A DNA stretch of 55,831 bases from contig SDNL01000001.1 in NCBI GenBank assembly GCA_004524365.1, positions 1 to 55,831 on the forward strand. The letters run 5' to 3'. A program made the position numbers and the translations under genes. This DNA is from Promethearchaeota archaeon (GTDB lineage Archaea > Asgardarchaeota > Lokiarchaeia > Sigyniarchaeales > SOKP01). Shown piece after piece: positions 25,201 through 50,782 of the stretch (positions are counted from its first letter, which is position 1; each line of letters begins with the position of its first letter). The notes below the pieces were generated by a model, which was not told where the DNA came from, made no database searches, and worked only from the letters and a program-made list of their open reading frames with translations.

Positions 25201-26097
25201 ATGGGCTTTAAAAAAATGAAAAAAGCATATAATGCATCTGCAAAAATAATGGAGAAACGGATGGAAAAGGAACGCCCAGAAGACTTTCAAATTTTAAAAA
25301 AAGTTTCTAAATCATCTATTGTGATAGTTAAAGGAACATACGATAAAGTGGAATTAGTTTTAGATCTTATTAATATTCCATATCTCTTAATAGATTCTAA
25401 TCAATTTAATCAAATTGAACTAAATCCTAACCAAATTCTAATAATTAACTGTCCCGGAAACGGTATGGAAGAAAGTCTTACTAAAATTAAGGATTTTGTT
25501 AAACAAGGAGGCTTCTTATTTACAACCGATTGGGCTTTATCAACAATTTTAGAACAAATCTTCCCTGATTTTTTAAAATATAATCAAAGACCAACGCAAG
25601 ATGATTGCGTCGCAGTTGAAATAGTTGATAAAAATAATAAATTTCTTGAGGGAATATTTAAAGCTGATGAAAAACCAATTTGGTGGTTAGAAAGTTCCTC
25701 CTATCCTATTCAAATATTAGATCCTAAAAAGGTTCAAATATTGGTCAAAAGCGAGGAAATGAAGCAAAAATATGGTCAAGATCCTATTGTTATTACTTTT
25801 AACTATGGAGATGGTGGGACCGTTTTACATATGACCAGCCACTACTATCTTCAGCGTTCTGAATTACGGACAAACCGTCATATGAAATCAGCTGCAGACT
25901 ATGCTATGGAGGAGATGGCTTTTTCAAAAGAAGAAGTAATGGAAATCGAAAAAGAACTTAATGGTGTGTCATTAGGAGAGGCTGAATCAGCATATTCTAC
26001 AACCCAGTTTCTCGGTAATGTTATTATTGAGCAACAGAAAAAAGTGAATAAACGATTGACTAAAAAGAAATCAGTTGAAAATAAAGAATCCAAATAA
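25201..26097 (+). CDS. Hypothetical protein (possibly a class-I glutamine-amidotransferase-like / ThuA-like fold)
   Basis: ILIINCPGNG...IKDFVKQGGFLFTTDWAL is reminiscent of GATase1-like folds, but I see no catalytic motif. The coding call rests on ORF length and position. Confidence 0.35.
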   Translation: MGFKKMKKAYNASAKIMEKRMEKERPEDFQILKKVSKSSIVIVKGTYDKVELVLDLINIPYLLIDSNQFNQIELNPNQILIINCPGNGMEESLTKIKDFVKQGGFLFTTDWALSTILEQIFPDFLKYNQRPTQDDCVAVEIVDKNNKFLEGIFKADEKPIWWLESSSYPIQILDPKKVQILVKSEEMKQKYGQDPIVITFNYGDGGTVLHMTSHYYLQRSELRTNRHMKSAADYAMEEMAFSKEEVMEIEKELNGVSLGEAESAYSTTQFLGNVIIEQQKKVNKRLTKKKSVENKESK

Positions 26098-26213
26098 TTC
26101 ACCTTTTTTTCTTTTCCTTAAGAAAATTGTATTAACGAAAAAGAAGATATAAAAAAACAAATATTATTATTATTTTTATAATCATACAATAAGTATTTTA
26201 TAATGATTTTAAT

Positions 26214-27773
26214 TTGCCCATCAAAGTCCTAATTGCTGAAGATTCTGCTTTTGTAAGAAAAAAAATTTCACAAATATTATCATCTAATAATTTAATAGAG
26301 GTTGTTGCAGCGGCAAAAAATGGAGAAGAAGCAGTCGAATTAACATTAAAGTATCTTCCCGATGTCCTAATCTTGGATCTATTAATGCCGAAGATGAATG
26401 GATTAGAAGCATTTAAGAGAATTATGAATGAATACACGGTTCCCACTATAATTTTATCTAGCATGGGACCTAGCAATTTAGATTCATCTATCCAAGCACT
26501 TATAATTGGTGCCTTTGATTATATAATGAAGCCGGGTACTCTTAAAGGGGAAAGTCTAACTCATTTCAAAGATATTTTAATTGATAAAGTAAAACTAGCA
26601 TCTAAATCCCACTTTAAAAGAGCAGATGATAAAAATGAGAAAAAATTTACCCAAATATCCCCCCGGCAAAAATTAGTCAATGAAATATTTGAATTTGGAC
26701 GATTTTTAAAAAAAATTGAGTCATCTGATAAGTCAAATTCAAAGACAAAACTCAAAAATATAGAAGATTTGAATTCAGTTCAAAAGAATGTCCCTCTTTC
26801 CGAATTTAAGCGTCATAAAAAGAATAAAAAAGAAAAAAAAAGAGTTCCAAAAAACATAGAAAAAGATTCTAAGGATGTAAAAAAACCTAAGAATAAAACA
26901 TCAATTAAGAATAAAAACGGGAAAAAGAAAGAATTATTAAAAAAAACCAAAACTTTTAAAGAAAGCGAAAACAATGCCAAAGAAAATAAGAATGGTAAAA
27001 GAAAATATGATAACTATTCTAAGTCTGTGAAGCAAACTTCAAAAGAAACTCCAATACTTAGTGGGAATTTAAAAAAATCTAATTTATACCCAGATCAAAT
27101 AAGTAAAGATATTAATTTAGAAAATAAAGATAAAAAAACATCTCTTACAGCGATTGATCTTCTCTCAAATAGAAATTTTCAAAAATCAAATATAAAAATA
27201 CATAGGAAATTAATAGTTATAGGTGCATCTGTGGGCGGCCCCCAAACAATTAAAACAATCCTAAAAAAACTCCCTAAGGATTATCCATTCCCAATTATCA
27301 TTGTGCAACATCTAAATTCAAAATTTATCAAACCATTTGCACAATCCATGGACGAATTATGTCCAATAAAGGTAAAGGTTGCTGAACACAATGAATTAAT
27401 AAAATCAAGTGTTGTATATATTGCCCCTGGAGAAAAGCATATTAAAGTATCCACAAAAAATCATTATCCAAGTATAAAAATATTTAATGATATTTCTATT
27501 AATTTTTGCAAACCTTCAATTGATATATTATTTATTTCGGCTTCACAAGTATATAAAAATCGGGTAGTAGGGATTTTACTAACAGGTATGGGTAAAGATG
27601 GGGTAAAAGGAATAAAATACATTTACAACAATAATGGATTTACGATATCTGAATCAGAAGAAACTGCTATTTTATATGGGATGCCAAAATTTGCAGTTGA
27701 AAAGGGTGTGGTAAACAAGAGCTTACCAATTGATAAAATTTCCGAATTACTAATTAGATATTCTAATACATAG
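26214..27773 (+). CDS. cheB: CheB methylesterase with receiver domain and an unusually long Lys-rich linker
   Basis: N-terminal REC domain (VLIAEDSAFVRK...LILDLLMPKMNG...). C-terminal esterase with GASVGGP (Ser), QHLN (His) and GMGKDG (Asp). About 200 aa of K/N/S-rich sequence lies between them. TTG start. Confidence 0.85.
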   Translation: MPIKVLIAEDSAFVRKKISQILSSNNLIEVVAAAKNGEEAVELTLKYLPDVLILDLLMPKMNGLEAFKRIMNEYTVPTIILSSMGPSNLDSSIQALIIGAFDYIMKPGTLKGESLTHFKDILIDKVKLASKSHFKRADDKNEKKFTQISPRQKLVNEIFEFGRFLKKIESSDKSNSKTKLKNIEDLNSVQKNVPLSEFKRHKKNKKEKKRVPKNIEKDSKDVKKPKNKTSIKNKNGKKKELLKKTKTFKESENNAKENKNGKRKYDNYSKSVKQTSKETPILSGNLKKSNLYPDQISKDINLENKDKKTSLTAIDLLSNRNFQKSNIKIHRKLIVIGASVGGPQTIKTILKKLPKDYPFPIIIVQHLNSKFIKPFAQSMDELCPIKVKVAEHNELIKSSVVYIAPGEKHIKVSTKNHYPSIKIFNDISINFCKPSIDILFISASQVYKNRVVGILLTGMGKDGVKGIKYIYNNNGFTISESEETAILYGMPKFAVEKGVVNKSLPIDKISELLIRYSNT

Positions 27774-27871
27774 CTATACAAAGTAAAGGAATTGAACGAT
27801 TTAAGATAAATCTCATATATATAACAAAAACATATGTTTTTAAGTATGTTCTATATTATTTTTGTAGAAAT

Positions 27872-29986
27872 ATGAGATACGAAATAATCGAAGGTGTTAA
27901 TATTATTCAACCCTTAGAAATGGATTCCGATATTTATGATAAAATCATTCTAAAATTGGAAACTGAGACTCATATCAAATTTAAGTATTATCAAAATAAT
28001 TATGTGATAAAAAGAATCAAATCAAGAATAAATTCTTTGAATTTATCTTCTGATGGAGCTTATTATGATTATTTAAAGAATCACCCAGATGAAATCGATC
28101 TTTTCTTAGATAATTTTACTATTAATTATTCTTACTTTTTTAGAAACTTTAACGTTTTTCAAGAAATAAAGAAATTGATAGAAAATGCGGGATTAACTCA
28201 ACAAGACACTATAAGAATATGGTCATGCCCTTGTGCTTCTGGTGAGGAGCCATATTCCTTGGCGATATTATTTGAAGAGTTAAAAAATGATAAGAAAAAT
28301 TTTCCTAATTATGAAATTATAGGTTCGGATATCAATCCAAACGCTATAAAAAAAGCAAGATTAGGAATTTACGGCGAACATGCTTTGAGTGAGATACCTG
28401 AAAAAATAAAGAAAAAGTACTTTGAAAGACTTTCAGAAAGTTCTTTAAAATATAAACTGATAAAAAAAATAAGAACTAAAGTAAGATTTATTAATGAAGA
28501 TATTACTTTAGGCCATCAAAAGTCTCAAAAATACGATATAATATTATGTAGAAACTTTATAATTTATATAGATAATATTTACCGAAAAGAACTCCTTAAG
28601 AATCTCAAAATGGTTTTAAAAGAGCAAGGTATATTAATACTAGGTAAAACCGAAAAAATTAGACAAGACAATGCTCTTGAAATCATTGATCCAATTAATC
28701 AATTTTATATCCATAATTCAGAAAATGTAAATGATAAATATCCATATAAATCTCTTTTATTTAAAAAAAATGAACAAAAAAGAATTTCAAAACCTCTAAA
28801 TCTAAAATTACAGAGTAGAGAATTCAAAACAAGAGAAAAATCAAATAAAAAACACCTACAAACAAGAAAAACTAAAAAACAAATTGAACAAAAGAGAGAG
28901 AAAAAGAATGATAAAAATGAAAATGATAATAAAAATTCAATAAAATTAATTAAACCTAATAAAGCCAAAGTCAAAAATGATAAAATTGTAGAATTAGAAC
29001 TAGAATCAGAACCCAATAAAACTACATATACATTAAATGAATTCAATGACAAATTTGCAAACCAAAAAATAAAAGGTTCTCAAGAAAAATTAGAAATCCA
29101 AGGTGAGTCTTCTGAACAAATCCAAGAGAATTTAAAAAAATTAAAAGAAAAGATTGATAAGGAAATCTTTTATCTTGACCAGCAGAGAGATGATTTAAAT
29201 AATAAAATATCAATTTTCCAAAAAAAACAAAAAGATTTTCAATTAGAAAAAGAACAATTTATTCGAAAAAAATTATTTTTTAAGCAACAAAAGAAACAAT
29301 ATGAAAAGGAATTAAAATGGTTTCAAAAACAAAAAAATCAGTTCGAGACTAATAGAGAACGATTTAAAGTTAAAAGAATTCAATTTTTAAAGGAGAAACG
29401 GAAATTTGAATCACGATTGCACAATAATAAAAAAAATAATGATAACATTAAAAAATTTGAAGAAAAAAAGAGATCTCTTAAGGAATATATATTACCTCTT
29501 GGGAGCCATATCTTACTTTCTCAAAATGATAATAGACTTGGAATAGGACTTTTAAGTTTATATGGGTTGGGAAGTAGCTATGTGTTAATTTTAGTTGATT
29601 CTGTTATCAAAGTATATAGCATGGCTCATATTTTATTTTCTAAACCAAAAAATAAAATACAAATGCCCGAGGAAGTATCAGCAATTGAAAAACCACATCA
29701 ATATGCTTCCCTATGTGTACCCTATTTGATAAAGAGAATGCTAGTGAAAGGGGCCTCAGAAAAAATGATCTCTGCTTATATTATTGGAGGTGCTCAGTTA
29801 TTCAATAAAAAATATGAGTCTATTATGGAAACTTATAATATTCTTAAAGAAAAATTGTCAGCATATAATATAGAACTTCTTAATTCAGATATAGGGGGAA
29901 AATCACGCCGTATGATAAAATATAACCTTAATGAAGAAAAATTATATTTAAGAACTGAGGATGAAAAATCCTTTAAACCCTTATAG
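27872..29986 (+). CDS. cheR: CheR methyltransferase fused, via a basic coiled-coil linker, to a CheD-like domain
   Basis: The N-terminal ~285 aa form a CheR domain (FFRN..., WSCPCASGEEPYSLAILF, ILCRNFIIY). The C-terminal ~170 aa align by eye to T. maritima CheD (GLGSSYVLIL..MAHILFS..IIGGAQLF..SDIGGKSRRMIKYNL..KLYLR). Confidence 0.8.
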   Translation: MRYEIIEGVNIIQPLEMDSDIYDKIILKLETETHIKFKYYQNNYVIKRIKSRINSLNLSSDGAYYDYLKNHPDEIDLFLDNFTINYSYFFRNFNVFQEIKKLIENAGLTQQDTIRIWSCPCASGEEPYSLAILFEELKNDKKNFPNYEIIGSDINPNAIKKARLGIYGEHALSEIPEKIKKKYFERLSESSLKYKLIKKIRTKVRFINEDITLGHQKSQKYDIILCRNFIIYIDNIYRKELLKNLKMVLKEQGILILGKTEKIRQDNALEIIDPINQFYIHNSENVNDKYPYKSLLFKKNEQKRISKPLNLKLQSREFKTREKSNKKHLQTRKTKKQIEQKREKKNDKNENDNKNSIKLIKPNKAKVKNDKIVELELESEPNKTTYTLNEFNDKFANQKIKGSQEKLEIQGESSEQIQENLKKLKEKIDKEIFYLDQQRDDLNNKISIFQKKQKDFQLEKEQFIRKKLFFKQQKKQYEKELKWFQKQKNQFETNRERFKVKRIQFLKEKRKFESRLHNNKKNNDNIKKFEEKKRSLKEYILPLGSHILLSQNDNRLGIGLLSLYGLGSSYVLILVDSVIKVYSMAHILFSKPKNKIQMPEEVSAIEKPHQYASLCVPYLIKRMLVKGASEKMISAYIIGGAQLFNKKYESIMETYNILKEKLSAYNIELLNSDIGGKSRRMIKYNLNEEKLYLRTEDEKSFKPL

Positions 29987-30096: not shown

Positions 30097-30900
30097 TTGA
30101 TTTTAAAAATGGAATTACTTCAACAAGCAGAAAAGGATTATAAAAACTGGGGAAATTTTCTTGATATTTCGGGATTTATGGATAAAATAACGACAAATCT
30201 TTCCGAAAAAGGCTTTGAGCGTGGAAACTCCCGTCTTGTTTATAGTGTATGTCCTGATGATGTCAATAGATTGCAAGACTTAAATACAATAGAAAAAGCA
30301 CTTACAAGTGAATATAACAACGAATTTCATTTGGGCGGCCTAGGTGCATACCCTATGGGCGGAGTATCTGGGATAATTGCTGCAAGTCATCACCCTCCTG
30401 ATAGAATTCTAAATGGTGATAGGCGCGGCGGTAATTTAATCTTTTTTATAAGCCCTCATTTCGGTCTTATCGAAAAAGAGAATTACCTCTATGGAAAAAT
30501 TATCAGACCAGGTCAACAAAAAATTACAAGTTCATGTGGTGCAATGATGGGCTTTTTAGATGCTTTAAAAACAGCGGGTAGTCCAAATAATTTTGATATT
30601 ACGCCCGACCCACATACTTTAGACCCTACTCGGATGGTATTACACTCTGAACTCATCAATAATTACTCGGATTGGCTCAATAATATTCTTCAAATGGATG
30701 ATCCTAATGATCAGGTGATTGATCTCTTTAAGTTAAATTACGATTTAGTAATTAATAAGATAGATGAAATGATAGAGGAATTTTTAACATTAGAAGGGGA
30801 TCACTTCGAAGGTGATATCGCAGTAATCGGAGGAGTTACTGTCAATACAGTATCTGGTGACAATTTTATTCTAAAAGAAATTAAATTTCCCAAAATCTAA
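30097..30900 (+). CDS. Hypothetical protein; tentative LCIB/LCIC-like (beta-carbonic-anhydrase-fold) family member
   Basis: Candidate metal ligands are spaced like a beta-CA-type site: VCPDDVNR (Cys/Asp), SPHFG (His) and SSCGAM (Cys). This rests on recollection of the family only. TTG start; an ATG lies at 30109. Confidence 0.3.
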   Translation: MILKMELLQQAEKDYKNWGNFLDISGFMDKITTNLSEKGFERGNSRLVYSVCPDDVNRLQDLNTIEKALTSEYNNEFHLGGLGAYPMGGVSGIIAASHHPPDRILNGDRRGGNLIFFISPHFGLIEKENYLYGKIIRPGQQKITSSCGAMMGFLDALKTAGSPNNFDITPDPHTLDPTRMVLHSELINNYSDWLNNILQMDDPNDQVIDLFKLNYDLVINKIDEMIEEFLTLEGDHFEGDIAVIGGVTVNTVSGDNFILKEIKFPKI

Positions 30901-31053: not shown

Positions 31054-32550
31054 ATGATAACTCAAGGCTTAGCGAAAATTATTGAATCAAGTTCTAATGA
31101 AATTAACTTATTTTATAAAAAAATTGATGAATATTTCAAAGGTAATATGTTAAAAAATATACAAAAATTACCTCTTAATGCTAATGATCCTAAAGAAGTA
31201 TTAAAATCTCTGGTTTCATTAATTTATGATATATTAAGAGATTTGAGTTTTTCAGAACAAGAAATAGAATGTCATTTTTCTTCACTTTGGAAAAGCAATA
31301 TAGAAGATCAGTTAGGAAATAAGAAGGAAATTATGGAGATATATGAGATTTTGTCGCCACTGCTTTATAAACTCTTCCTAGATAAAATCATTAATTACTT
31401 GGCGGATACAAAATCAAATTCTCATATGGCAAAATTAAAGTCTGAGAACTTCTTACCGATTGAATTTATAATAAAATTGAAAGAATTAAGAAAATTTTTT
31501 AATCAAAATTTGGAGAAAAAGGATAGATTACAAAAATATTTGCAAATACAAAATAAAATCTTACAAAAATTAATTAATAATCAAGAAAATATTGAGAAAT
31601 TTCAACAATTGAATGATCCAAGAGATAGAATCCAATTATCCTACATCATGTATCGTATCATAGAATTTTTCAATTTGGAAGGAATGTTTGATTTTTCTCC
31701 TATCCAGGATTACATTAAAGAACATCCGGAACAATGGTTGGATACAATCCCATTAGTTTCATTAAAAAATCCCGATATTTATTACTGTGGGATCTATCTC
31801 ATTAATAAACTTATTATTCCAATGGATATGAATGATGTAAAATACTTCCTTTTAAATATGTATGACGAATGCATTGACGAATTTGAAGCCCCACTCATAG
31901 AAGCTACAAATCAAGTTTATTTCTTTTTTAAGTCCTCTTGGATGGCAAGGCTAGAGCTTTCTAACAGACAAAATAAAGAACTACTCAAAGGAGATAAAGT
32001 TTATTATACCACATCCTATCTTAGAAATCTCGAAACTTCTCAATTAGTTCTAATTTTAAGAGTATATAATCATTTAGATTTATTTGATAAATTGGATCAA
32101 GATAAAATTAAGCCGATTACCAATGAAATAGAGAGAAGAGTCTCGGAAAAGGGGATTAAACAATTTCGGGATGGTTTTATCTCTGCAGAAGCTACATACC
32201 ATGTCTTATTTTATAAATATATGAGAAATAGTTTAGAAGGACTTCAAACCCAAAAGATTTTGGATAATATTATTTCTCGTATTTATAGAAATCTACAACT
32301 TATTGATTTTTCAGAAGATATTAATTATGACTTGCTCACTGAATTGTTTTATGCATGTCAGAGCCTTCAATTATTAAATTGTATCGAAAATGAGTCTATG
32401 GTGGAACTACTTGCTAAGCATCTTTTCCCAACAAGGGTCCTTCAAAAATTTATAGATTCTGATGAGACCCCTACTTTCAATAACTCAAAACTTTTTGAGC
32501 TCAAGATATCAAAAGATACAGGCGACCTTATTCATGAAATTAGGCACTGA
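31054..32550 (+). CDS. Hypothetical all-helical protein
   Basis: A long ORF (498 aa) with local codon usage. I recognise no catalytic motif. The C-terminal half has recurrent aromatic-rich helices (IYYCGIYLINKL, VYFFFKSS, ATYHVLFYKY, LFYACQSLQLL). Confidence 0.4.
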   Translation: MITQGLAKIIESSSNEINLFYKKIDEYFKGNMLKNIQKLPLNANDPKEVLKSLVSLIYDILRDLSFSEQEIECHFSSLWKSNIEDQLGNKKEIMEIYEILSPLLYKLFLDKIINYLADTKSNSHMAKLKSENFLPIEFIIKLKELRKFFNQNLEKKDRLQKYLQIQNKILQKLINNQENIEKFQQLNDPRDRIQLSYIMYRIIEFFNLEGMFDFSPIQDYIKEHPEQWLDTIPLVSLKNPDIYYCGIYLINKLIIPMDMNDVKYFLLNMYDECIDEFEAPLIEATNQVYFFFKSSWMARLELSNRQNKELLKGDKVYYTTSYLRNLETSQLVLILRVYNHLDLFDKLDQDKIKPITNEIERRVSEKGIKQFRDGFISAEATYHVLFYKYMRNSLEGLQTQKILDNIISRIYRNLQLIDFSEDINYDLLTELFYACQSLQLLNCIENESMVELLAKHLFPTRVLQKFIDSDETPTFNNSKLFELKISKDTGDLIHEIRH

Positions 32551-32585: not shown

Positions 32586-33236
32586 TTAAATTGATTTGAT
32601 CTTTTTGACTACTTCTCGAAGTTGTAAACTTCCCATCCCTAATCTTATCTCTTTAGAGAAAATTAAAATGAGAATAACTTCATAATCTTCTGCTAAATTA
32701 GTAAAGATTGAACATACCTTTTGTTTGTTCTCTAACTCAAGAAACATTTTCCTAACCTTTATCAATTTTTTTTGATTTCTTACTTCAAATTCTTTAATAG
32801 TATTTAATAATGTCTTATGTGGGAGGGAAGAGTAGAGAACCTTACCTGTAACCGTTAATAAAGCACTTCCAATAACCTCTTTATCATCAACACACTCTCT
32901 TAAAATATATAAAATATCTTCGAAGATATCCAAGGAGTTGAGATTTTGATCCATCGAATTTACCGATTCTTGAGTTTTTCCTTCAAAAAATTCCATTTTT
33001 GAGAATTCAAAATCAATTTTTTGATATCCTCGAGGTACATAATTTTTATCAATATAAACCTGGAAGCTGTGCCCGCAAATCAATCCTTTCGGAACTGAAA
33101 CAGTCGTTAACTGCTTACTTTCATTAATTATTTTAGAGGGGATCATAAGATGATCCTTTTTATCACAAACAGGACATTTTATCAATGTCTCTGTATATTG
33201 ATTACCCTCTGTGCTTGTATCTTTTTCACTTATCAT
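32586..33236 (-). CDS. Zinc-ribbon protein with C-terminal Roadblock/LC7-like domain (paralogue of 50171..50782)
   Basis: CPVC...CGHSF ribbon followed by RGYQKIDF. The C-terminal EVIGSALLTVTGKVLYSSLP...EVILILIFSKEIRLG fits a Roadblock-like pattern by eye. Confidence 0.5.
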   Translation of the reverse strand: MISEKDTSTEGNQYTETLIKCPVCDKKDHLMIPSKIINESKQLTTVSVPKGLICGHSFQVYIDKNYVPRGYQKIDFEFSKMEFFEGKTQESVNSMDQNLNSLDIFEDILYILRECVDDKEVIGSALLTVTGKVLYSSLPHKTLLNTIKEFEVRNQKKLIKVRKMFLELENKQKVCSIFTNLAEDYEVILILIFSKEIRLGMGSLQLREVVKKIKSI

Positions 33237-42146: not shown

Positions 42147-43004
42147 ATGAATTATCAATATTACAAAACATTAATGGACAAATCTGAGGAGAATTTATTT
42201 TTCTTAATTGAGAAAATAGTACCTGCACCTTTAAAGGAAGAATTAGGTCTTTTTTTAGAAGGATTTAACCTTGGAAAAATTAAAAAATCTTCTCTTGAAG
42301 AGAATTTTATTCAGATTAATCCATTAAACAAAAATTATGCTGACTTATCTAAACTCAATTCCCAACAATTAAAGGAAATATACGAAACTTTCATTAGTAG
42401 AGAAAAAAACGATAAAAAGGCGGTAAAATGGAGATTGCTCCGGTATTTGAGAATTCAAAAAGATATACAATTAGAAACACTTCACATTAATGTTGATATG
42501 AATGAAGATAATGCAGTGGATATAATCTTCGAAACTAAAAATCATAAGTATTACTTTATAAATTGTAGTTATATTCTAGAAAAGGAATATTATTACAATT
42601 TAATAGAAAAACTTATCGCCTTTTCTAAAAAAATTAACCTTAAACCTGAAAAAATCGTATTTTCTGCTCATAAAACCTATAGAGATATTCCTTATAAAGA
42701 AGATATTCAAGTAGGTAATATAAAATATGAGATAGAAAAAGAAATCTGGGTAGAATGGACAGAATTAGAAAAACCTTTTAATGGGGAAGATCTTCTTCTA
42801 ATCCTGAGTAATAATGAAAAAGATTTAGAACTTGCGGGATTTAATTTTACCAGCATCCAAACATTGTTGGATTATGTGTATAGATATTCTAAAGGAGGAC
42901 AAATTGCTATATATAAACAGCCTGGGTTTTTCTCGGCAAAAAGTAATGAAAATCCTCAAATTGAATTAATTTGGAAAGGAATTATGTTAAAAAATAAAAT
43001 TTAA
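42147..43004 (+). CDS. Hypothetical protein between cheA and cheC (CheF-like role possible but not recognised)
   Basis: A 285-aa ORF with a Shine-Dalgarno motif and tight operon spacing. I could identify no motif. Confidence 0.45.
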   Translation: MNYQYYKTLMDKSEENLFFLIEKIVPAPLKEELGLFLEGFNLGKIKKSSLEENFIQINPLNKNYADLSKLNSQQLKEIYETFISREKNDKKAVKWRLLRYLRIQKDIQLETLHINVDMNEDNAVDIIFETKNHKYYFINCSYILEKEYYYNLIEKLIAFSKKINLKPEKIVFSAHKTYRDIPYKEDIQVGNIKYEIEKEIWVEWTELEKPFNGEDLLLILSNNEKDLELAGFNFTSIQTLLDYVYRYSKGGQIAIYKQPGFFSAKSNENPQIELIWKGIMLKNKI

Positions 43005-43033: not shown

Positions 43034-44977
43034 ATGAGAAATATGGTAGAGACATTATCTGACAGTAAAAATATAAATGTTGTAATAATTGGAATAAAAA
43101 GTGAGAAATATCTAATAAAAGTAGAAAAAGTAAAGGAAATATATGTTCCAAAGGATAATATAGTACCTATCCCATTAGCAGATAAAACAATTACAGGTGT
43201 AATCGATATTAGGGGAGAAGTCTATTCTATTTTATCTTTGAGAAAAAAAATATATGATGAGGAAAATCTCCATCATATTCATAAAGATAATCGAGTGCTA
43301 TTATTAGAAACTAATGGTGTAAATCTTTCAATACTTGTTGATGAAGTAATAGGCGTTAAAGAAATTCCAACTTCGGTTTTTAATCATGGTGCGCCAATTA
43401 TTGAAACCGATCTTGATATAAAATTCATTGAATCCGTTGCAATTATTGAAGAAAATACCTATATTCTATTAGATATCGATGCCTTCATTAAAAGTTTCAA
43501 TATTGATTTAAACTATAATAGGATTGAACCAATTTCGCCTTCGCGAAAAGAAACTAAGGGAGGAAGTTCCAATATAAGTATTGAAACAAAAAGACCGGAT
43601 ACATCTCCCATATCCTCTAGTGAAACTTACGAAATAGGAGGAAAATTATCTGAATTAAAAGATAAAATTAAATTAAATCCTGAACAAGAGGATATGCTTA
43701 AAGAGATTGGAAATATTGGCTCAGGAAATGCAGTGACTGCACTTTCTCGATTGATTAAGAAGAAAATTGATATCGATTTAACTAATGTTGGAATTGTTTC
43801 CTTTGACAATTTGACGGATCAATTTGGAGGTCCAATGGAAAAAGTATGCGGAATATTCTCCCAAATTAAGGGGGCGCCCCAATCATCGATCCTCCAAGCT
43901 TTTGAGCTGAAACCGCTAATGAAATTGATTTCATCTTTAATTGGTGATGATTCTCAAATAGATCCAGAAAATGTATCATCTAAAAAGGATCTTGATGACT
44001 TTGCGATCTCAACTATTACTGAAATGGGAAATATATTAGCGGGTCATTATGCATCTGCTTTAGCAGATTTGACGGGAACTAAAATGATGATCAATGTCCC
44101 TGAGTTTTCTGTTAGTGATATCGGTTCAATTGGGAAATTTTTAAGCCAAGAATTAAAAACAATCTATACATATATAGTGGTCATAAAAACATCAATTAAG
44201 GTTGTAGACTATGAATTAAATGGAGTATTTCTTTTCATTCCTGGCTTGGATACACTTTATAAATTCTTTGATCAGTTGGGAATCAATTATAAACCACAAG
44301 AATCATCAAGAAAATTCCATAAGAAATCTTTAAATTCGGATAATTTAGAACTTACAGAAATTCAAAGAGATGCTCTTCAAGAAATTGGTAATATTGGTTC
44401 TGGTAATGCCGCAAATGCTTTAGCTAAAATGGTGAATCAAAAAGTAACAATTGCTATTCCAAAGGTAGAAATGATGACTATTGATAAATTTTCTAAGAAG
44501 TTACAAACAAATGATAACCTATATACATCTTGGAGTAATGTAAAAGGGAAAACTCGCGCAACGGTGTTAACAATTTTCCAAATATCTGATATCATTGAAA
44601 TAACTGCTATTCTAACTGATGATAAGAAGAAAAAACAATTGGATCTCAGAAAAAAGTATGATAGCGTGGAAAAGTTCCCCGAAATGTATCAAAGTGCTAT
44701 GAGTGAGCTAGGAAATATTCTAGCTTCAAATTACGTATCCTCGCTCGGAGATCTCTTAGATATTCGATTAATGACGGACCCTCCTGATATGATCATAGAT
44801 ACGAAAGAACAGTTATTTACAAATTTAAGAGACCAAATTGGATTTCTAGAAAAATTATCTTTAGTAATAACTACTGCTGTTATAATCACTGATATCAAAA
44901 TAGAAGGAGCCTTTTTATTTGTTCCTGAAATAGAAACTCTACATGAACTTCTAAAAGCGCTTGAAAAGTTCTATTAA
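43034..44977 (+). CDS. cheC: CheW-like domain fused to two CheC-type phosphatase domains
   Basis: N-terminal CheW-like domain (YLIKVEKVKEIYVP...ITGVIDIRGEVYSILSLRKKI). Then two CheC units, each with LKEIGNIGSGNAVTAL / LQEIGNIGSGNAANAL and E-x2-N-x22-P-type sites (TEMGNILAGHYASALADLTGTKMMINVPEF; SELGNILASNYVSSLGDLLDIRLMTDPPDM). Confidence 0.75.
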   Translation: MRNMVETLSDSKNINVVIIGIKSEKYLIKVEKVKEIYVPKDNIVPIPLADKTITGVIDIRGEVYSILSLRKKIYDEENLHHIHKDNRVLLLETNGVNLSILVDEVIGVKEIPTSVFNHGAPIIETDLDIKFIESVAIIEENTYILLDIDAFIKSFNIDLNYNRIEPISPSRKETKGGSSNISIETKRPDTSPISSSETYEIGGKLSELKDKIKLNPEQEDMLKEIGNIGSGNAVTALSRLIKKKIDIDLTNVGIVSFDNLTDQFGGPMEKVCGIFSQIKGAPQSSILQAFELKPLMKLISSLIGDDSQIDPENVSSKKDLDDFAISTITEMGNILAGHYASALADLTGTKMMINVPEFSVSDIGSIGKFLSQELKTIYTYIVVIKTSIKVVDYELNGVFLFIPGLDTLYKFFDQLGINYKPQESSRKFHKKSLNSDNLELTEIQRDALQEIGNIGSGNAANALAKMVNQKVTIAIPKVEMMTIDKFSKKLQTNDNLYTSWSNVKGKTRATVLTIFQISDIIEITAILTDDKKKKQLDLRKKYDSVEKFPEMYQSAMSELGNILASNYVSSLGDLLDIRLMTDPPDMIIDTKEQLFTNLRDQIGFLEKLSLVITTAVIITDIKIEGAFLFVPEIETLHELLKALEKFY

Positions 44978-45088: not shown

Positions 45089-45613
45089 ATGCCAAATATT
45101 AAATATAGAGAAAAAATATTTCAAGTGGTTGGAGAAAATATAAAGCCAAATCCAAAAACCATTTTTAATCCTGAGGAAGTTTATCTATTTATTGATGAAA
45201 ACCTTAATGTGATATGGATCTGGGCTGGTGAGAAATCAAAACTATTTCATAGATACATTGCATCCTCATGGGCTGGTAAATTAAAGAGTAAAAAACAGTA
45301 TTTTAATTACAATTATGAACTTGTGAAACAAGGAAGGGAACCAAAAAAATTCAAAGTAATTATTGATGAAGTAGAAGAAGGAAGATCAGATCTGAATTAT
45401 CCCGGAGAATCTAGGACTCTTGAAATTAGTGTCAAATCCAAATCTAAAAATGATTTACATTCAAATCGATATTCACAAAAAATACCAAATAAAAAGGTTG
45501 CTAAAATTACAGCCATTCTCTCTGAAGTTCAAGAAATGCAAAGTCATATTAGATATTCTCTAGAACATATAGGAAAGCGCATTAGAAAGATAGATGAAAT
45601 TTTGAATAGTTAA
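45089..45613 (+). CDS. Single gelsolin-domain protein with C-terminal helical tail
   Basis: FQVVGENIKP......EVYLFIDENLNVIWIWAGEKSKLFHRYIASSWAGKLKS....ELVKQGREPKKF follows the gelsolin-repeat pattern (l..v.g....v...l.s.d.yiLd....iy.W.G..as..e...a...a..l......i..v.eg.Ep..F). Confidence 0.55.
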   Translation: MPNIKYREKIFQVVGENIKPNPKTIFNPEEVYLFIDENLNVIWIWAGEKSKLFHRYIASSWAGKLKSKKQYFNYNYELVKQGREPKKFKVIIDEVEEGRSDLNYPGESRTLEISVKSKSKNDLHSNRYSQKIPNKKVAKITAILSEVQEMQSHIRYSLEHIGKRIRKIDEILNS

Positions 45614-45672: not shown

Positions 45673-46626
45673 ATGATAAATTCATCACTTTTAGATACTT
45701 TACTTGAAAATTTTCTAAATCAAGTTAATGATTTAACTGCCGTGTTGGTTGTCGATGCAGATGGACTTATAATCGCTCAAGAATCAACCAAAGACTTTGA
45801 TGAACAAATAATCGCTGCCATTATGGCTATTCTGGATCAAACAATAAATAAGATTAAGAAATATGCCGAAACTTCCTTTGGGAGTGGGACTCTAGATACT
45901 AATGAATTCCGCTTGTTTTATTTAGAATTAGGAGGAGATTTCCCTGTTATATTCGTAATAGTAACCGATTCGTACACAAATATCGATAAATACATCCCTT
46001 ATTCATACCTAGTCGCCGAAAAAGTATCTCTCTTAATAAATAATACAAATGATATTAATGTTAGACTTCCAGAACTCCTTGAAAATGGAGAATTAAGATT
46101 TAATTCTTGCAAGAGTTCTAACAAACGTACCAAGAATTATATTTTGGTAATTGGTCCTCAAAAAGTAGGGAAAACGGCATTAGTAAATAAATATACAAAT
46201 AATGCATTTATTGAACATTATAAACCAACTATAGGATTATCAATAGTTAAAAAAGAACTTCAAATCTCTAAGAAAATTCAATCTATTCTTTATCTATTTG
46301 ATATGGGTGGATTTAAGGCATTTGGTAAAGTAAGGAAGCATTTTTATGAATCGATTGATATTAAAACAATAGTACTTGTTTTTGATTATTCCAAAGAATC
46401 TACTTTAGATAAAATTAATGATTGGTTTTATGAAGTCAATTTATTTAATAAACAAGAAAGCATTCAATATGTTTTAGTTGGAAATAAAATTGATAAAATT
46501 GATTATAGAGAGGAAATTAGAAAAAAAGCTGAGAATATAGCAAATGAATATAATTGTAGGTTATATGAGACATCCGCTCTTACAGGACAGGGTATTGATG
46601 AACTATTTATGAATATAGCCTTTTAA
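45673..46626 (+). CDS. Roadblock/LC7 domain fused to a Ras/Rab-like small GTPase
   Basis: The N-terminal VNDLTAVLVVDADGLIIAQES...IAAIMAILDQT...FPVIFVIVTD is a classic Roadblock/MglB-like pattern. The C-terminal G domain has G1 GPQKVGKT (46153..46176), G2 PTIG, G3 DMGGF (46300..46314), G4 GNKID and G5 ETSA. Confidence 0.75.
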   Translation: MINSSLLDTLLENFLNQVNDLTAVLVVDADGLIIAQESTKDFDEQIIAAIMAILDQTINKIKKYAETSFGSGTLDTNEFRLFYLELGGDFPVIFVIVTDSYTNIDKYIPYSYLVAEKVSLLINNTNDINVRLPELLENGELRFNSCKSSNKRTKNYILVIGPQKVGKTALVNKYTNNAFIEHYKPTIGLSIVKKELQISKKIQSILYLFDMGGFKAFGKVRKHFYESIDIKTIVLVFDYSKESTLDKINDWFYEVNLFNKQESIQYVLVGNKIDKIDYREEIRKKAENIANEYNCRLYETSALTGQGIDELFMNIAF

Positions 46627-46674: not shown

Positions 46675-48756
46675 TTGATGCCAATAAAGATGAATAAAAA
46701 AATTAACGCCGTGAAAGCCAAGTTTATTAATCCAATAAAAGAACTTAGTATTCCAACTTTCATTATTGACTCAAATCATAACGTAATTGAATGGAATAAA
46801 GCCATTAAGAACTTGACAGGAGTAAGGCGAAAGGAGATACTTGGCACTTCTAATGCTTGGAAGGCCTTTTATTCAGAAAAGCGCCCTACTTTAGCAGATC
46901 TCTTACTGGATGGAAAGATAGAAGAGATAGAAACATATTTTCAAAACTTTTCAAAGGCAAAGCATTGTCTTAGAGGTTATACTGCTGAGAAATGGCTTGA
47001 AATAAATTATGAGAGATTATATCTTATCATGACTGCTACCGCAATTCTGGATAAAAAAGGGGAGATCATTCAAATTATACAAACAATTGAAGATAGGACA
47101 GAATCAAAACATATAAAGGATAGAAAAGAGTTTTTAAATTCAATATTTCGGCATGATGCAAATAATATGATAAATGTATGCCACGGGTTTCTCAAATTAT
47201 TGGAAAAAACTGAATTAACAGAAGTGCAGAAGGACTATCTTCAAGAAGCTATTAATGCTTCGCGTGGAGTAATCAGCATCATTGAAAAAGTAAGTAAACT
47301 TCAAAAAGTTGGAAGGGAAGAGACTCAAGACCTGTCATTAGGGGATTTAATTCAAGAAATTGTAAATAAAAATCAATTCCAAGCAAAGGAAAAAGGTATT
47401 ACGATTGAAGTATGTCTTCCAGAATTTAGCTCAAATGTCCAAGCAGGGGAATTGCTTGAAGATGTGTTTATTAATATAATTGGAAATTCATTGCAACATA
47501 GTCAATGCGACAAAATTAAAATCTCGGGAAGAGAAAGTAAGGATGCAATTATTTGTTGTATTGAAGATAATGGAAAGGGAATAAAAGAAGAAGATAAAGA
47601 AATGATATTTAATCAAGGATTTAAGAGAGGAAAAAGTGCTGGATCAGGATTGGGGTTATTTCTTGTTAAAAAGATTACTAATAATTATGGGGCGAAAGTT
47701 TATGTAAAGGATTCTCAACTTGGTGGTGTGAAATTCGAAGTTCAATTAAAGAAGAGTAAAGGAAGACCAGAAAAAAGAAGAAATTCATTATCTCAAATTG
47801 AAAATGATTTTCATCTCACAGAAGATTCTTTACTTAATAATGAACATCATCTCCAAAATTTAATTGTTGTGGTCGATGATAATTTACAATTTTTAACCTA
47901 TATGAAAGTTTTACTAGAAAATTATGATTACAAAGTGGAAACTTTTAGAAGTGCTGTAAATGCCTTATCATATATTGAAAATCAGGACTATCACTCTATT
48001 CCTGATCTTATTATTTCTGATATACGCATGCCAGAACTCTCAGGATATGAATTCTTTAAGAATCTTTCTTCTAATCCAAAATTAAATCGCATTCCTTTTA
48101 TATTCCTTTCTGGGTTGAGCTCGAAGGATGATATTAGATTAGGAAAATATCTTGGAGCTGATGATTATATTACCAAACCGGTTTATGAAGAAGATATCCT
48201 TGCTTCGATTAAAGGAAAACTCCGTAGAAAAAAAGCAGGGAGCGTGTTTGAAACGGAAATTGATAAATATTTAAATTTAGAACAAAAGCGAGACAATAAA
48301 CTTGAAAATATGAAGTTTGATGAGGAAATCGTTCTTTTTTTGATATTTTGGGATGATAAAAAAGGTCCAAAATTAATTGAACAATATCCTGAGAAAAGCA
48401 GAATTTCACTTTCTGTTGATAAACTTGGTACTCAAATATTTCAAGCAATCGTTCCAATATATGGGCAATCAAAAAATATTGTAAATGCGGAAGATGTATT
48501 ATTTAGAATCGAAAATATCAATAAACATGCGTATCTTTACTTTGATGCATTTTATGATGAGTCAAAGCGATCTAAACAGACAGAATTTATGCTTTCAGTA
48601 ATCGCTCCAACGATAAGTTATTTTGAATCATTAAAATTAAAAAAAATATTATCTAATCTCTCAAATATATTAAAAGAAGATAACGACACGAAAAAAATAA
48701 ATTTCAGGCAGTATTGGAAAGACATTTTAGGCATTTTAAGTAAATTTGAAAATTAA
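46675..48756 (+). CDS. Hybrid sensor kinase: PAS - HisKA - HATPase - REC - extra C-terminal alpha/beta domain (longin/Roadblock-like, tentative)
   Basis: H-box FRHDANNMINV, N-box NIIGNSLQHS, G-boxes EDNGKGI / GSGLGLFLVKKI. REC domain (VVVDDN...LIISDIRMPELSGY...ITKPV). The final ~150 aa (IVLFLIFWDDKKGPKLIEQYPE...) have no kinase-related motif. TTG listed; ATG at 46678. Confidence 0.8.
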   Translation: MMPIKMNKKINAVKAKFINPIKELSIPTFIIDSNHNVIEWNKAIKNLTGVRRKEILGTSNAWKAFYSEKRPTLADLLLDGKIEEIETYFQNFSKAKHCLRGYTAEKWLEINYERLYLIMTATAILDKKGEIIQIIQTIEDRTESKHIKDRKEFLNSIFRHDANNMINVCHGFLKLLEKTELTEVQKDYLQEAINASRGVISIIEKVSKLQKVGREETQDLSLGDLIQEIVNKNQFQAKEKGITIEVCLPEFSSNVQAGELLEDVFINIIGNSLQHSQCDKIKISGRESKDAIICCIEDNGKGIKEEDKEMIFNQGFKRGKSAGSGLGLFLVKKITNNYGAKVYVKDSQLGGVKFEVQLKKSKGRPEKRRNSLSQIENDFHLTEDSLLNNEHHLQNLIVVVDDNLQFLTYMKVLLENYDYKVETFRSAVNALSYIENQDYHSIPDLIISDIRMPELSGYEFFKNLSSNPKLNRIPFIFLSGLSSKDDIRLGKYLGADDYITKPVYEEDILASIKGKLRRKKAGSVFETEIDKYLNLEQKRDNKLENMKFDEEIVLFLIFWDDKKGPKLIEQYPEKSRISLSVDKLGTQIFQAIVPIYGQSKNIVNAEDVLFRIENINKHAYLYFDAFYDESKRSKQTEFMLSVIAPTISYFESLKLKKILSNLSNILKEDNDTKKINFRQYWKDILGILSKFEN

Positions 48757-48908: not shown

Positions 48909-49844
48909 TTGATTCAAACTATGAAAAGTCTAAAGCTAATAATTGCAGGTTTAGATTATGCTGGGAAGACAAGTTCCATTATTGCTCTTAGAGAAAAATA
49001 TAATTTTTACGAAAAAGTGGAAAATTTGAAGCCCACGGTCAAGATTGAATATAGTAGTTTCAACTTTCTCAATCAATGGGAAGTTAATATTTGGGATATG
49101 GGTGGACAAGAGAAGTATAGACAAATTTATTTAGATAAACCAGAATATTTCGCAGATACAAATTATTTCTATTATTATATTGATATTCAAGATGAAAAAA
49201 AGATCTCCGAATCAATTAATTATTTTGAAGAATTATTAACAATTTTGAAAGATTTTAATTATTCTAATAAAATAATAATCTGTTTTCACAAATATGACCC
49301 AAAATTAAGAAGAAATAAAGATATTCTTGAAAGAATTACAAGTGTAAAGAAAAAACTTAAACAAAATGAACATTTTGAGTTTAAATTCTTTAGAACTTCA
49401 ATTTTTGATATTTCAACTCTTTCTAAAGCAATCTCATATTCATTAAATAGCTTAATTGATTTTAGTGTTTTAAAGCTAATTTTAAAGGGATTAATTCGAA
49501 AATTTAATGGAAATTATGCAATTTTATATACTGATTCAGGTGTGATACTTGTTGATTTTTATAAAGAAATTTTAGATTCGATTGAATATGAAGAGAAAGT
49601 ACGTCAATCAATTAACCGTGACCTTGTACTCATTCAAAAATTGAAGGATGATAATGTTGAATTCAATGAACGAGTAGATTATGATGAAGAGATTAAATAT
49701 TTAAAAAAATATGAGATTGGGGACAATATTTTCTTTCTAAAGATGAACGCTCCAAAAATGAGAGAGGAAAAAATACAATTATTGAAAAATAACTTTCAAA
49801 ATTTCGAAAACGACCTCCAAGAGATATTTTCAAATAATTCGTAA
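48909..49844 (+). CDS. Rag/Gtr-like (Arf-related) small GTPase with C-terminal Roadblock-like domain
   Basis: G1 GLDYAGKTS, G2 PTV, G3 WDMGGQEKYR (49092..49109). G4 is HKYD (49287..49298), the HKxD variant characteristic of Rag/Gtr GTPases rather than NKxD. The C-terminal ~125 aa (GNYAILYTDSGVILVDFYKE...) look Roadblock-like. The 311 aa length is close to eukaryotic RagA. TTG listed; ATG at 48921. Confidence 0.65.
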   Translation: MIQTMKSLKLIIAGLDYAGKTSSIIALREKYNFYEKVENLKPTVKIEYSSFNFLNQWEVNIWDMGGQEKYRQIYLDKPEYFADTNYFYYYIDIQDEKKISESINYFEELLTILKDFNYSNKIIICFHKYDPKLRRNKDILERITSVKKKLKQNEHFEFKFFRTSIFDISTLSKAISYSLNSLIDFSVLKLILKGLIRKFNGNYAILYTDSGVILVDFYKEILDSIEYEEKVRQSINRDLVLIQKLKDDNVEFNERVDYDEEIKYLKKYEIGDNIFFLKMNAPKMREEKIQLLKNNFQNFENDLQEIFSNNS

Positions 49845-49910: not shown

Positions 49911-50156
49911 TGCTCTGCTATTTCTTCTTCCTCATAGTCTGGAGATTACATTGGTAGAACAAATATCATATCTTTTAACCATTTATTAGTAATCATAAAT
50001 GATTTTTTGTTTTGCTCAGATTTAAAAACAAAGACTATTATTAATTATTCTGAATTGACCAGTTAAAACTGTTGATATTTATTACAAATAATACACCAAA
50101 AAATTTTTAATATTAATTATGTGTCAATTCACAACTATTATAAGGGTTATTAATAA

Positions 50157-50162
50157 AGGAGG
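50157..50162 (+). promoter_or_regulatory. Shine-Dalgarno-like AGGAGG, 8 nt upstream of the ATG at 50171
   Basis: The sequence aataaAGGAGGtattcttaATG. Confidence 0.45.
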
Positions 50163-50170
50163 TATTCTTA

Positions 50171-50782
50171 ATGTTGGTAAATATTTTATGTCCGTATTGT
50201 AAGAAAATGTTTCGAAAGGAAATTACAAATACAAAAAAATCTGGGACTCTTTATTCCACACTAATAAAGGCCCAAGATGGACATGAAGGATGTGGTGCAT
50301 TTTTAGCATTTATCGATAATAACGGAATGCATCGGGGCTCTCAAAAAATTGATCATATTGAAGAAGCACATTCCGAAAATGAAACTTATATTAATCAAGC
50401 ACTTAAAAATATAAATGAATTGGATGAAAAAATTAGATTCTATCATCTTAAAATCCCTAAAACAAAATTCAAACGTTCCTTTGAGTATAAAGTGGCCAGC
50501 GTAAAGGATAGGGCATTTATGAGTTCACGCACTTATAAAGGCTTATTTAATTTTGTTAAAGATTGTAGGAATGATAATATGTTTGGAATGCTTTCTTTAG
50601 ATTCGGATGCTGAACTTGATGGCTCATTAGTCTATGGAAAATATATGGGGTTACTCTATGTTCTCTATTGGAATAATCAAAAAAAAATAAGAAATAGTTC
50701 TTGGGATGAAATCAAAGGCTATACCAATCTTACTGTTGAAAAACTTATTGAGTTGTACGAATTGATCGATTTATTCTTTTAA
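50171..50782 (+). CDS. Zinc-ribbon protein, paralogue of 32586..33236
   Basis: CPYCKKMF...GCGAFLAFIDNNGMHRGSQKIDH aligns with CPVCDKKD...CGHSFQVYIDKNYVPRGYQKIDF. The C-terminal alpha/beta region is possibly Roadblock-like. Confidence 0.5.
   Translation: MLVNILCPYCKKMFRKEITNTKKSGTLYSTLIKAQDGHEGCGAFLAFIDNNGMHRGSQKIDHIEEAHSENETYINQALKNINELDEKIRFYHLKIPKTKFKRSFEYKVASVKDRAFMSSRTYKGLFNFVKDCRNDNMFGMLSLDSDAELDGSLVYGKYMGLLYVLYWNNQKKIRNSSWDEIKGYTNLTVEKLIELYELIDLFF

Follow-up and report, generated by a model that had tools for sequence, protein, structure and literature searches.

An operon linking chemotaxis genes with longin, Ras-like GTPase and gelsolin genes in a family of Asgard archaea

Introduction

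In Myxococcus xanthus, the Frz chemosensory pathway acts on the polarity switch formed by MglA, a Ras-like GTPase, and MglB, a Roadblock GTPase-activating protein; a Che-type phosphorelay is thus tied to a GTPase of the Ras superfamily and its Roadblock-fold regulators rather than to a rotary switch. The frz and mglBA genes form separate loci, and the output passes through response regulators to motility machines. This pathway is the nearest functional analogue of the gene cluster described here, a chemosensory (che) operon that also contains genes for a tandem longin (di-longin) protein, a coiled-coil protein (CC1040), a protein of a small new family (U285), a gelsolin and a Roadblock-Ras GTPase. 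The cluster lies within positions 1 to 55,831 of contig SDNL01000001.1 from a Promethearchaeota metagenome-assembled genome (MAG; GCA_004524365.1); this whole stretch of 55,831 nucleotides is referred to as the window. In contrast to the Myxococcus genes, those of the window form one operon, gelsolin is included, and no pili or gliding genes are known. The C-terminal domain of the di-longin protein superposes on MglB (Z 10.4), whereas the GTPase differs from MglA in being Rab/Ras-like, in having a DxxG motif without the catalytic Gln and in being fused to its own Roadblock domain.

With canonical archaeal chemotaxis, in which phosphorylated CheY (CheY~P) signals through CheF to ArlCDE, the cluster shares the set of CheA, CheW, CheY, CheB, CheR, CheC, CheD and a methyl-accepting chemotaxis protein (MCP). 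It differs from that system in its CheW-CheC-CheC and CheR-CheD fusions and its five non-Che operon genes, and no CheF, archaellin or T2SSF protein was found. A precedent for archaeal phosphorelay input to the Roadblock fold is REC-NitrOD3 of Thaumarchaeota, a response regulator whose fused output domain is related to Roadblock (Galperin et al. 2018, PMC5847659); there a single fused protein is involved, with no Che, GTPase or gelsolin component, whereas here separate genes share one operon. The eukaryotic longin/Roadblock regulators (Mon1-Ccz1, Fuzzy-Inturned, Ragulator-Rag and TRAPP) resemble the di-longin protein in their tandem longin fold, and the di-longin protein is encoded beside a Rab-like GTPase; compared with the longin Rab guanine-nucleotide exchange factors (GEFs), it has two longin domains, not three, and its role as a GEF or GTPase-activating protein (GAP) is putative.

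Among Asgard archaea, chemoreceptor arrays have been seen in the cultured Lokiarchaeon L. ossiferum, with no output named, and che genes were present in 27/97 Loki/Heimdall MAGs (PMC9834061). Tran et al. reported that the GTPase genes of MK-D1 are generally not in operons with Roadblock or longin genes (PMC10933270); the Che-linked operon is an exception to this pattern, tied to che genes. A Thorarchaeal gelsolin of the 1DGelX type nucleates, caps and severs actin (Akil et al. 2020, PMC7444086), and neither operons nor chemotaxis is mentioned in that paper. The Che-linked gelsolin is like 1DGelX in having one gelsolin/cofilin-type domain with a helical C-terminal extension and in its sequence similarity to solved Asgard gelsolins; it differs in forming a separate orthologue group, found in CheA-positive genomes only and inside the che operon. 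In the full text of open-access papers and preprints, no account was found of che operons in Asgard archaea being linked to genes for gelsolin, longin proteins or GTPases; a sequence-only reading of the window had known of no characterised arrangement of this kind. What appears to be new is thus a pathway of a known class, Che-like with a non-flagellar output, in an Asgard gelsolin/longin/GTPase operon of which no published description was found.

Results

Conservation of the extended che cluster

The window belongs to a MAG (G000) of 1.9 Mb in 166 contigs, with a GC content of ~30% and a completeness of 61.7%. Its nearest relatives are MAGs deposited as Promethearchaeota, Lokiarchaeota or Hermodarchaeota, and the host family (coded f1) is a Lokiarchaeia-like family of Asgard archaea. 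The sequence-only reading had proposed a supercluster in which che genes are interleaved with Rag/Ras-like GTPase, Roadblock-like and gelsolin genes. In nine relatives, the surroundings of the CheA orthologues were first compared with the proteins of the window. An alignment of U285 was then used to search 185,579 species genomes, which gave 32 loci with 10-kb flanks. Loci that reached far enough to be informative served as denominators.

The usual gene order in these loci was ZnR1 (a zinc-ribbon gene, on the opposite strand), followed by di-longin, CheW, CheY, CheA, CC1040, U285, CheW-CheC-CheC, gelsolin, CheR, CheB, CheD, CheC, Roadblock-Ras and a second CheB. CheA, CheY and CheW were always present (25/25, 24/24 and 24/24 loci, respectively), and CheW-CheC-CheC was encoded in 30/31 loci. 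The gelsolin gene was found in 26/27 loci, the di-longin gene in 22/24 and the Roadblock-Ras gene in 14/21; in two further genomes, Roadblock-Ras lay ~14 kb downstream on the same strand. When seen from the nine relatives, Roadblock-Ras had been taken to be genus-specific, a view overturned by the comparison of 32 loci. At least 10/23 loci had ZnR1 ahead of the operon, encoded on the other strand.

In locus L050 (Loki_b32), 14 genes confirmed by Pfam followed each other on one strand with gaps of 7-122 nt; gelsolin lay between cheW-cheC2 and cheR, and Roadblock-Ras between cheC and the second cheB, a position that it occupied in many loci. In the genus of the window, cheB and the fused cheR-cheD gene were shifted upstream, so that gelsolin adjoins the GTPase gene, which is followed by genes for a hybrid kinase, a Rag-like GTPase and a second zinc-ribbon protein (ZnR2). 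In the single contig of G332, the cluster was split into halves 1.08 Mb apart (L085/L086, C1:346000-365900 and 1434000-1452000), one with CheY-CheA-CC-U285 and the other with CheWCC-Gel-CheR-CheB-CheD-CheC-RblRas-CheB2. After this split, gelsolin and the GTPase still lay among the cheR, cheB, cheD and cheC genes. At the break, only a CheW fragment remained, and there was no Che-type di-longin.

As almost all related loci have the non-Che core genes within the che operon, the conclusion that these are not chance neighbours is supported. Of the proposed supercluster, di-longin, CC1040, U285, gelsolin and often Roadblock-Ras were conserved in relatives, whereas the Rag-like GTPase, the hybrid kinase and ZnR2 were not. 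Therefore, the conserved supercluster is smaller than the one originally drawn.

Co-occurrence of the extra genes with CheA

The phylum was sampled evenly with 301 genomes, of which 68 belong to family f1 and 233 lie outside it. U285 was found in exactly the 14 genomes of the family that encode the CheA dimerisation domain and in 0/233 genomes outside. A larger sample of the family comprised 91 genomes, 28 with CheA (including G000) and 63 without. Che-type gelsolin, scoring at least 135 bits (paralogues, at most 71 bits), was present in 25/28 CheA-positive and 0/63 CheA-negative genomes. For Che-type di-longin (at least 355 bits), the corresponding counts were 24/28 and 2/63, and for Che-type Roadblock-Ras (at least 440 bits; paralogues, at most 400 bits), 17/28 and 0/63. 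The distribution of CheA was patchy within genera (e.g. 4/6, 4/10 and 11/26 genomes), and on this basis the set seems to have been gained or lost together. It may be concluded that the link between the chemosensory genes and a longin/GTPase/gelsolin module is well supported by genomic association.

One CheA-negative genome, G277 (97% complete), encoded a di-longin protein scoring 434 bits but no orthologue of CheA, gelsolin or the GTPase; its U285 match was marginal (7e-4). This di-longin gene may be a remnant of a lost cluster.

Absence of a recognisable motor

No CheF or archaellum gene had been recognised in the window by the sequence-only reading, and Pfam searches confirmed this. Genome-wide, CheF (PF04283) was found neither in G000, nor in five cluster-bearing relatives (93-97% complete), nor in any of the 301 Asgard genomes; a model that is silent throughout the phylum is uninformative within it, so the T2SSF platform and archaellin were used instead. 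The same five relatives contained no archaellin (PF01917) and no T2SSF/ArlJ/PilC platform protein (PF00482). The platform was encoded in 169/301 genomes of the phylum, whereas it was found in 0/68 genomes of family f1 and in 0/7 of its sister family. As G000 is only 61.7% complete, the weight of the absence rests on its relatives. Nearly all genomes of other CheA-bearing Asgard families had T2SSF (10/11, 20/21, 3/3 and 27/28), and the che clusters of two such families (G281 and G090) were conventional, with none of the five extra genes nearby.

The system thus stands outside the canonical Che-archaellum pathway, of which CheF, archaellin and the ArlJ-type platform were not found. The whole of family f1 seems to be devoid of type-IV-filament machinery. 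With no T2SSF in the family and no archaellin or CheF in the relatives, a non-archaellar role of the Che system is plausible.

Ordinary chemotaxis, with a motility organelle too divergent or unassembled to be detected and with extra genes that are passengers kept by operon inertia, was considered highly improbable. The incompleteness of the window MAG leaves some room for it, as does the failure of the CheF model even in families with CheA and T2SSF, which means that CheF-type adaptors can escape detection; the lack of T2SSF, however, extends to many genomes of family f1 that are 95-100% complete, and that of archaellin to all five near-complete relatives. In addition, passengers would not follow CheA at 25/28 versus 0/63, nor would they remain embedded among che genes after rearrangements. 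An undetected conventional motor is therefore unlikely.

The Che phosphorelay

The Che genes of the window, together with the other features, are listed in Table 1. CheA was found to contain the domains P1-P5 with the phospho-histidine motif HNLKG; its identity to the CheA of other Asgard families was just 26-27%. In CheY, the acidic pocket and the Thr/Ser and Lys positions (D15, D16, D61, S89 and K111) were invariant across 25 orthologues, with a mean column identity of 78%. CheW and the MCP signalling domain were also present, and Pfam identified a complete adaptation and phosphatase set of CheR, CheB, CheD and CheC. Judging by these sequence features, the relay is complete and apparently functional. 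Three [DS]xxxExxN...P phosphatase motifs of CheC were intact in CheW-CheC-CheC, and this fusion protein is probably a CheY~P phosphatase tethered to the array. A complex prediction of CheY against di-longin, U285 and gelsolin, run without controls, scored 0.00, a value that speaks neither for nor against contact.

The CheB of the window (26214-27773) was closest to the second CheB that follows the GTPase gene in other loci, with a full-length match of 41% to L050:18080-19468. Its receiver (REC) and methylesterase domains are separated by a linker of ~225 residues. The linker between CheR and CheD has ~330 residues and no domain assignment; in most relatives (e.g. L050), CheR and CheD are encoded by separate genes.

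The MCP gene starts at the ATG at 33811, not at the TTG at 33661, the open reading frame (ORF) list having placed the start 150 nt too far upstream. The preceding 104-aa ORF was seen in the alignment to stop one base ahead of the MCP start. A frameshift in this region was thereby rejected in favour of two adjoining genes. The 104-aa membrane protein may be a sensor partner of the MCP.

Table 1. Genes of the che cluster and its surroundings in the window
Feature	Position	Strand	Evidence or remark
PAS-PAS-HisKA-HATPase kinase	23585-25057		just upstream of the che cluster
CheB: REC, long linker, methylesterase	26214-27773	+	Pfam CheB_methylest 189.6 bits, Response_reg 77.4 bits
CheR-linker-CheD fusion	27872-29986	+	Pfam CheR 151 bits, CheR_N, CheD 51.8 bits
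LCIB-like beta-carbonic-anhydrase homologue	30097-30900	+	Pfam LCIB_C_CA 111.7 bits
498-aa all-alpha protein	31054-32550	+	ORF
ZnR1, CPxC...(C)H zinc ribbon and C-terminal domain	32586-33236	-	divergent from the operon
Membrane protein, 104 aa, predicted multi-pass	33495-33809	+	upstream of MCP in G001-G004, tblastn 39-54% identity
MCP, 373 aa: hydrophobic N-terminus, no large sensor domain, then signalling domain	33811-34932	+	Pfam MCPsignal 103 bits
Di-longin, 272 aa, first gene of the conserved core	35022-35840	+	AlphaFold2 (AF2) model
CheW	35847-36431	+	Pfam CheW 89 bits
CheY, single-domain	36447-36845	+	Pfam Response_reg 93.5 bits
CheA, P1-P5 (Hpt, P2, dimerisation, HATPase, CheW domains)	36868-38976	+	
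CC1040, 1040 aa, DUF11/coiled-coil	39012-42134	+	Pfam DUF11 53 bits
U285, 285 aa, small new family	42147-43004	+	AF2 pLDDT 92.1, pTM 0.90
CheW-CheC-CheC fusion	43034-44977	+	Pfam CheW 70 bits, CheC 139.6 bits in 4 stretches, CheX
Gelsolin, single-domain, 174 aa, conserved C-terminal helical tail (1DGelX-like)	45089-45613	+	phmmer
Roadblock-Ras (Rab-like) small GTPase	45673-46626	+	Pfam Ras 108.8 bits, Robl_LC7 25.9 bits
Hybrid kinase PAS-HisKA-HATPase-REC-X	46675-48756	+	Pfam
Rag/Gtr-like GTPase	48909-49844	+	Pfam Gtr1_RagA PF04670 84.3 bits (cut-off 22)
ZnR2, ZnR1 paralogue	50171-50782	+	blastp 3e-8
Ribosomal protein L2	51004-51759		downstream, after ZnR2

The di-longin protein and the Roadblock-Ras GTPase

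The di-longin protein gave no sequence match to any solved structure. Its AF2 model, built from 49 homologues (pLDDT 80.8, pTM 0.75), contained two domains of the longin/Roadblock fold, each half being predicted to form the beta-beta-alpha-beta-beta-beta-alpha sandwich. Residues 144-272 matched the Sec22b longin with VIA Z 12.1 (121 aligned residues, rmsd 3.1), Fuzzy with 11.8 and MglB with 10.4; residues 19-140 matched Lst4 and the Lokiarchaeal Roadblock-Longin protein 8yqg, both with Z 10.8. The Foldseek probability was ~1.0 for Mon1, Ccz1, Fuzzy, LAMTOR and 8yqg, and TRAPP, AP sigma and Sec22 were among the other fold matches. PAS/Cache folds also appeared in the whole-chain Foldseek results, at lower probability. 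This protein had earlier been described as a tandem Roadblock protein; the fold held for both halves, and the model identified them as longin domains. The tri-longin RabGEFs (Mon1-Ccz1, Fuzzy-Inturned and BLOC-3) have three such domains whereas two were modelled here, and the whole-chain TM score to Mon1, Ccz1 and Fuzzy was 0.16-0.26, which places the protein outside that class. From fold and operon linkage only, we infer that it may have GAP or GEF activity on its cognate GTPase.

The motifs G1-G5 of the Roadblock-Ras protein (GPQKVGKT, PTIG, DMGG, NKID and ETSA) were kept in 15 orthologues, as is characteristic of the Ras superfamily. Among the 60 best of 735 PDB matches, Rab12, Thor-Rab and Rab7 were at the top, followed by other Rabs, Rap and KRas; MglA was not among these 60. 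All 15 orthologues have F, L, I or A after DxxG, and the catalytic Gln at the position of Ras Q61 is thus missing. As a consequence, if GTP is hydrolysed at all, a partner would have to contribute a residue in trans. The Rab-like best matches and a G3 motif of the form DxGG rather than of the TxxGQ type set the protein apart from MglA. By analogy, it may nevertheless work in the manner of MglA/MglB. Each genome of family f1 also encoded 8-10 paralogous full-length Roadblock-Ras fusions.

The properties of these two proteins would also fit a Che pathway that controls a non-cytoskeletal process (expression, trafficking or cell-cell contact) via longin/GTPase, with gelsolin in a minor or indirect role, comparable to the bacterial Che pathways with an alternative cellular function. 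Bacterial Che-like pathways with non-motility outputs are established, and longin/Roadblock proteins and Rab-like GTPases are classically regulators of trafficking; the folds matched here include Mon1-Ccz1, TRAPP, AP sigma and Sec22, and Rab12 and Rab7 are the closest GTPases within the 60 best matches. Such a role was judged improbable, since gelsolin, which it leaves at the margin, is the most tightly co-distributed gene resembling eukaryotic signature proteins, ahead of the GTPase, and the conserved genes of the cluster include none for a transcription factor or a trafficking coat.

Gelsolin and actin

Residues ~23-97 of the gelsolin matched 7whf (E 1.8e-6), 7c2f (1.6e-5), 7c2g (8e-5) and CapG (1.9e-4) in phmmer searches, and the helix that follows the gelsolin domain at the C-terminus was conserved in the alignment of orthologues. 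Actin homologues were found in G000 and its relatives. Profile and structure searches thus upheld the original GTPase, Roadblock/longin and gelsolin assignments, that of gelsolin by sequence only.

A locus of interest was seen in two relatives of different genera, G012 and G003, at L083 (G012:C39:15000-27147), 5065-9646, and L084 (G003:C290), 5173-9536. It encodes a kinase-less paralogue of CheA (564 aa, with an Hpt-like N-terminus and two P2 CheY-binding domains) and, divergent from it, a conserved operon for a protein of the actin family (396 aa; Pfam Actin, 176 bits), proteins of 861, 253 and 177 aa without assignment and an ACT-domain protein, and eight genes are syntenic between the two genomes. 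Orthologues were found in G014 and G018 and not in G000-G002. This locus is a second, independent adjacency of a Che module and an actin-family gene.

CC1040 and U285

CC1040 consists of a conserved N-terminal region of ~155 aa, a K/E-rich coiled coil (~160-540) and a C-terminal beta-sandwich region of the DUF11 type of ~500 residues. Inspection of the N-terminal sequence by eye revealed no evident signal peptide or membrane segment. Most relatives matched this protein only at residues 1-155 and 540-1040. Between lineages, the coiled coil varies by ~365 residues, the protein having 1040 aa here versus 675 aa in L050 (7932-9959), and the terminal regions are kept.

The U285 family is small, with 59 representatives among 1.8 billion proteins. 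Foldseek gave no match to the U285 model at E≤1e-3, and the best VIA Z scores (6.8-6.0), to restriction-endonuclease-like chains, were of a size that common arrangements also reach. There is a weak resemblance of the core to a degenerate PD-(D/E)xK fold; no Lys is conserved where the motif would have it, and D125 varies across the wider family. The leads from a protein atlas (PDDEXK_3 and DUF234) were weak. An active nuclease and a CheF analogue were both rejected as identities of U285, as neither a catalytic motif nor a clear fold match was found.

A coiled coil that is long and variable in length, as in CC1040, is typical of scaffolds, and the extra genes are interleaved with cheW, cheA and cheW-cheC2 and do not lie at the operon end. 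The main alternative considered was that the extra proteins serve to assemble or place the array of chemoreceptors, the true output being elsewhere; CC1040, U285 and di-longin would then form a scaffold, and the GTPase and gelsolin would direct the array to particular membrane sites, for example on actin-filled protrusions, in a manner likened to bacterial positioning of the ParC/ParP or FlhF type. That the GTPase is dispensable in one-third of loci agrees with this proposal, which we regard as credible though rather unlikely. To our knowledge, no array-positioning system is built on these folds. The proposal would also leave CheY~P without a candidate target in genomes that lack archaella and pili, and characterised gelsolins remodel actin rather than anchor to it (PMC7444086).

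Gene layout and neighbouring genes

All ORFs from 20096 to 53066 were on the plus strand, with 32586-33236 as the sole exception, in accordance with the earlier statement that almost all genes share one strand. The gaps between 35022 and 48756, given as 6-112 nt, measured 6, 15, 22, 35, 12, 29, 111, 59 and 48 nt. Ribosome-binding sites of the GGAGG type had been noted before several starts; AGGAGG indeed precedes 42147 and 50171, GAGGT precedes 39012 and GGTGA precedes 36868, and most other starts in the window lack such a motif. Every domain named in the sequence-only gene order was recovered by Pfam, PDB sequence matches or two AlphaFold models, but the order had left out four genes between cheR-cheD and MCP, namely those of the LCIB-like protein, the 498-aa protein, ZnR1 and the 104-aa membrane protein.

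The zinc-ribbon paralogues said to bracket the cluster are a real pair, ZnR1 and ZnR2, which flank the core only and not the whole interval. The ORF 25201-26097 was rejected as the second paralogue, since it has no Zn ribbon and is unrelated to either. C21, C24 and H56 of ZnR1 were invariant in the alignment. The only match of the ZnR C-terminal domain was a weak one to MglB (E 0.2), and comparison by hhalign with the alignments of Roadblock-Ras and di-longin gave a negative result; the domain carries no assignment. For the C-terminal ~170 residues of the hybrid kinase, a longin-like domain suspected from the sequence pattern found no support (no PDB match; hhalign probability 0.4), and these residues also carry no assignment.

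The Rag-like GTPase, with 8yl2, 8zla, RagA and Gtr1 as best PDB matches and an HKYD G4 motif, is assigned by its sequence to the Rag/Gtr family. As noted above, ZnR2, the hybrid kinase and this GTPase adjoin the cluster only within the genus of the window (the kinase in 2/23 and the Rag-like GTPase in 2/21 loci). The Rag orthologues of G002 and G012 have unrelated surroundings, and more distant ones occur in CheA-negative genomes, so neither conserved adjacency nor co-occurrence ties Rag to the che cluster. Because of this distribution, the hybrid kinase and Rag-like GTPase, together with ZnR2, are regarded as recent neighbours in the genus and not as core parts.

The 498-aa protein had no Pfam, NCBIfam or PDB match. 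Its gene and the LCIB-like gene recurred beside the che cluster in G002, G004, G012, G014, G031 and L040, with varying position and orientation, and their membership in the system is uncertain. Housekeeping genes (GatE, GatD, fibrillarin/Nop5, SAM synthetase and others) lie 5' of the cluster. A PAS kinase similar to the one upstream of the cluster was located beyond ZnR1 in L042, L047, L050, L053, L060 and L063 (23-26% identity; Pfam-confirmed in L050); this kinase could be a recurrent neighbour or merely a member of an abundant gene family. Downstream, the L2 gene also follows ZnR2 in G001 (L034:364-1116). The examined ORFs beside L2 included no ribosomal-protein match, and apparently no ribosomal-protein cluster is present there.

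Discussion

The cluster was interpreted as a lineage-specific chemosensory system of one Asgard family, the relay of which has its output via longin/GTPase and gelsolin to actin; this interpretation is given about an even chance of being correct. According to it, receptor-controlled CheA would phosphorylate CheY, and CheY~P, with no CheF or archaellum to bind, would act on a longin/Roadblock platform. This platform would set the nucleotide state or the location of the Ras-like GTPase, and GAP or GEF activity would come from a partner of the longin or Roadblock type, as the GTPase has no Gln61 equivalent. The GTPase and gelsolin would then locally change the nucleation, severing or capping of actin filaments, and this change would give the growth of protrusions or the polarity of the cell a bias, either toward the stimulus or away from it. 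A more specific model, in which the receptor-CheA-CheY relay steers actin via the longin-regulated Ras-like GTPase and gelsolin while U285 and CC1040 serve as CheY-output adaptors replacing CheF, is proposed tentatively.

Several points weigh against an actin-directed output. Signalling to actin and contact of CheY~P with any of the five proteins are steps that we infer, and actin binding by the Che-linked gelsolin is assumed from its similarity to other gelsolins; the Pfam gelsolin model gave no match to this protein even at E≤10. The Roadblock-Ras gene was missing from the cluster in about one-third of loci and from 11/28 CheA-positive genomes, so the GTPase cannot be an obligatory output. 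Paralogous di-longin proteins (220-330 bits) are widespread in the family, including its CheA-negative genomes. The score cut-offs for orthologues were picked after gaps between score tiers had been seen, and the sampled genomes are mutually related MAGs, so that the counts are not independent events. Finally, oligo-T runs follow the MCP, cheW-cheC2, hybrid kinase and Rag genes, and several transcripts from the cluster are therefore possible.

Che arrays and genes of Asgard archaea have been known with no output named, and the operon offers a candidate output. According to work on Asgard small GTPases, these cannot be matched to Roadblock/longin regulators, as operons are rarely shared (PMC10933270); here, a specific and testable pairing is provided, with one GTPase, one di-longin, one gelsolin and one CheY. 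Two new protein families, U285 and CC1040, are added as candidate adaptors. If the link to actin is true, an Asgard lineage would have possessed receptor-to-GTPase-to-actin control of cell shape with a prokaryotic phosphorelay as its base, and this would bear on eukaryogenesis. It would amount to a prokaryotic cytoskeleton-based chemotaxis or chemotropism among the closest prokaryotic relatives of eukaryotes.

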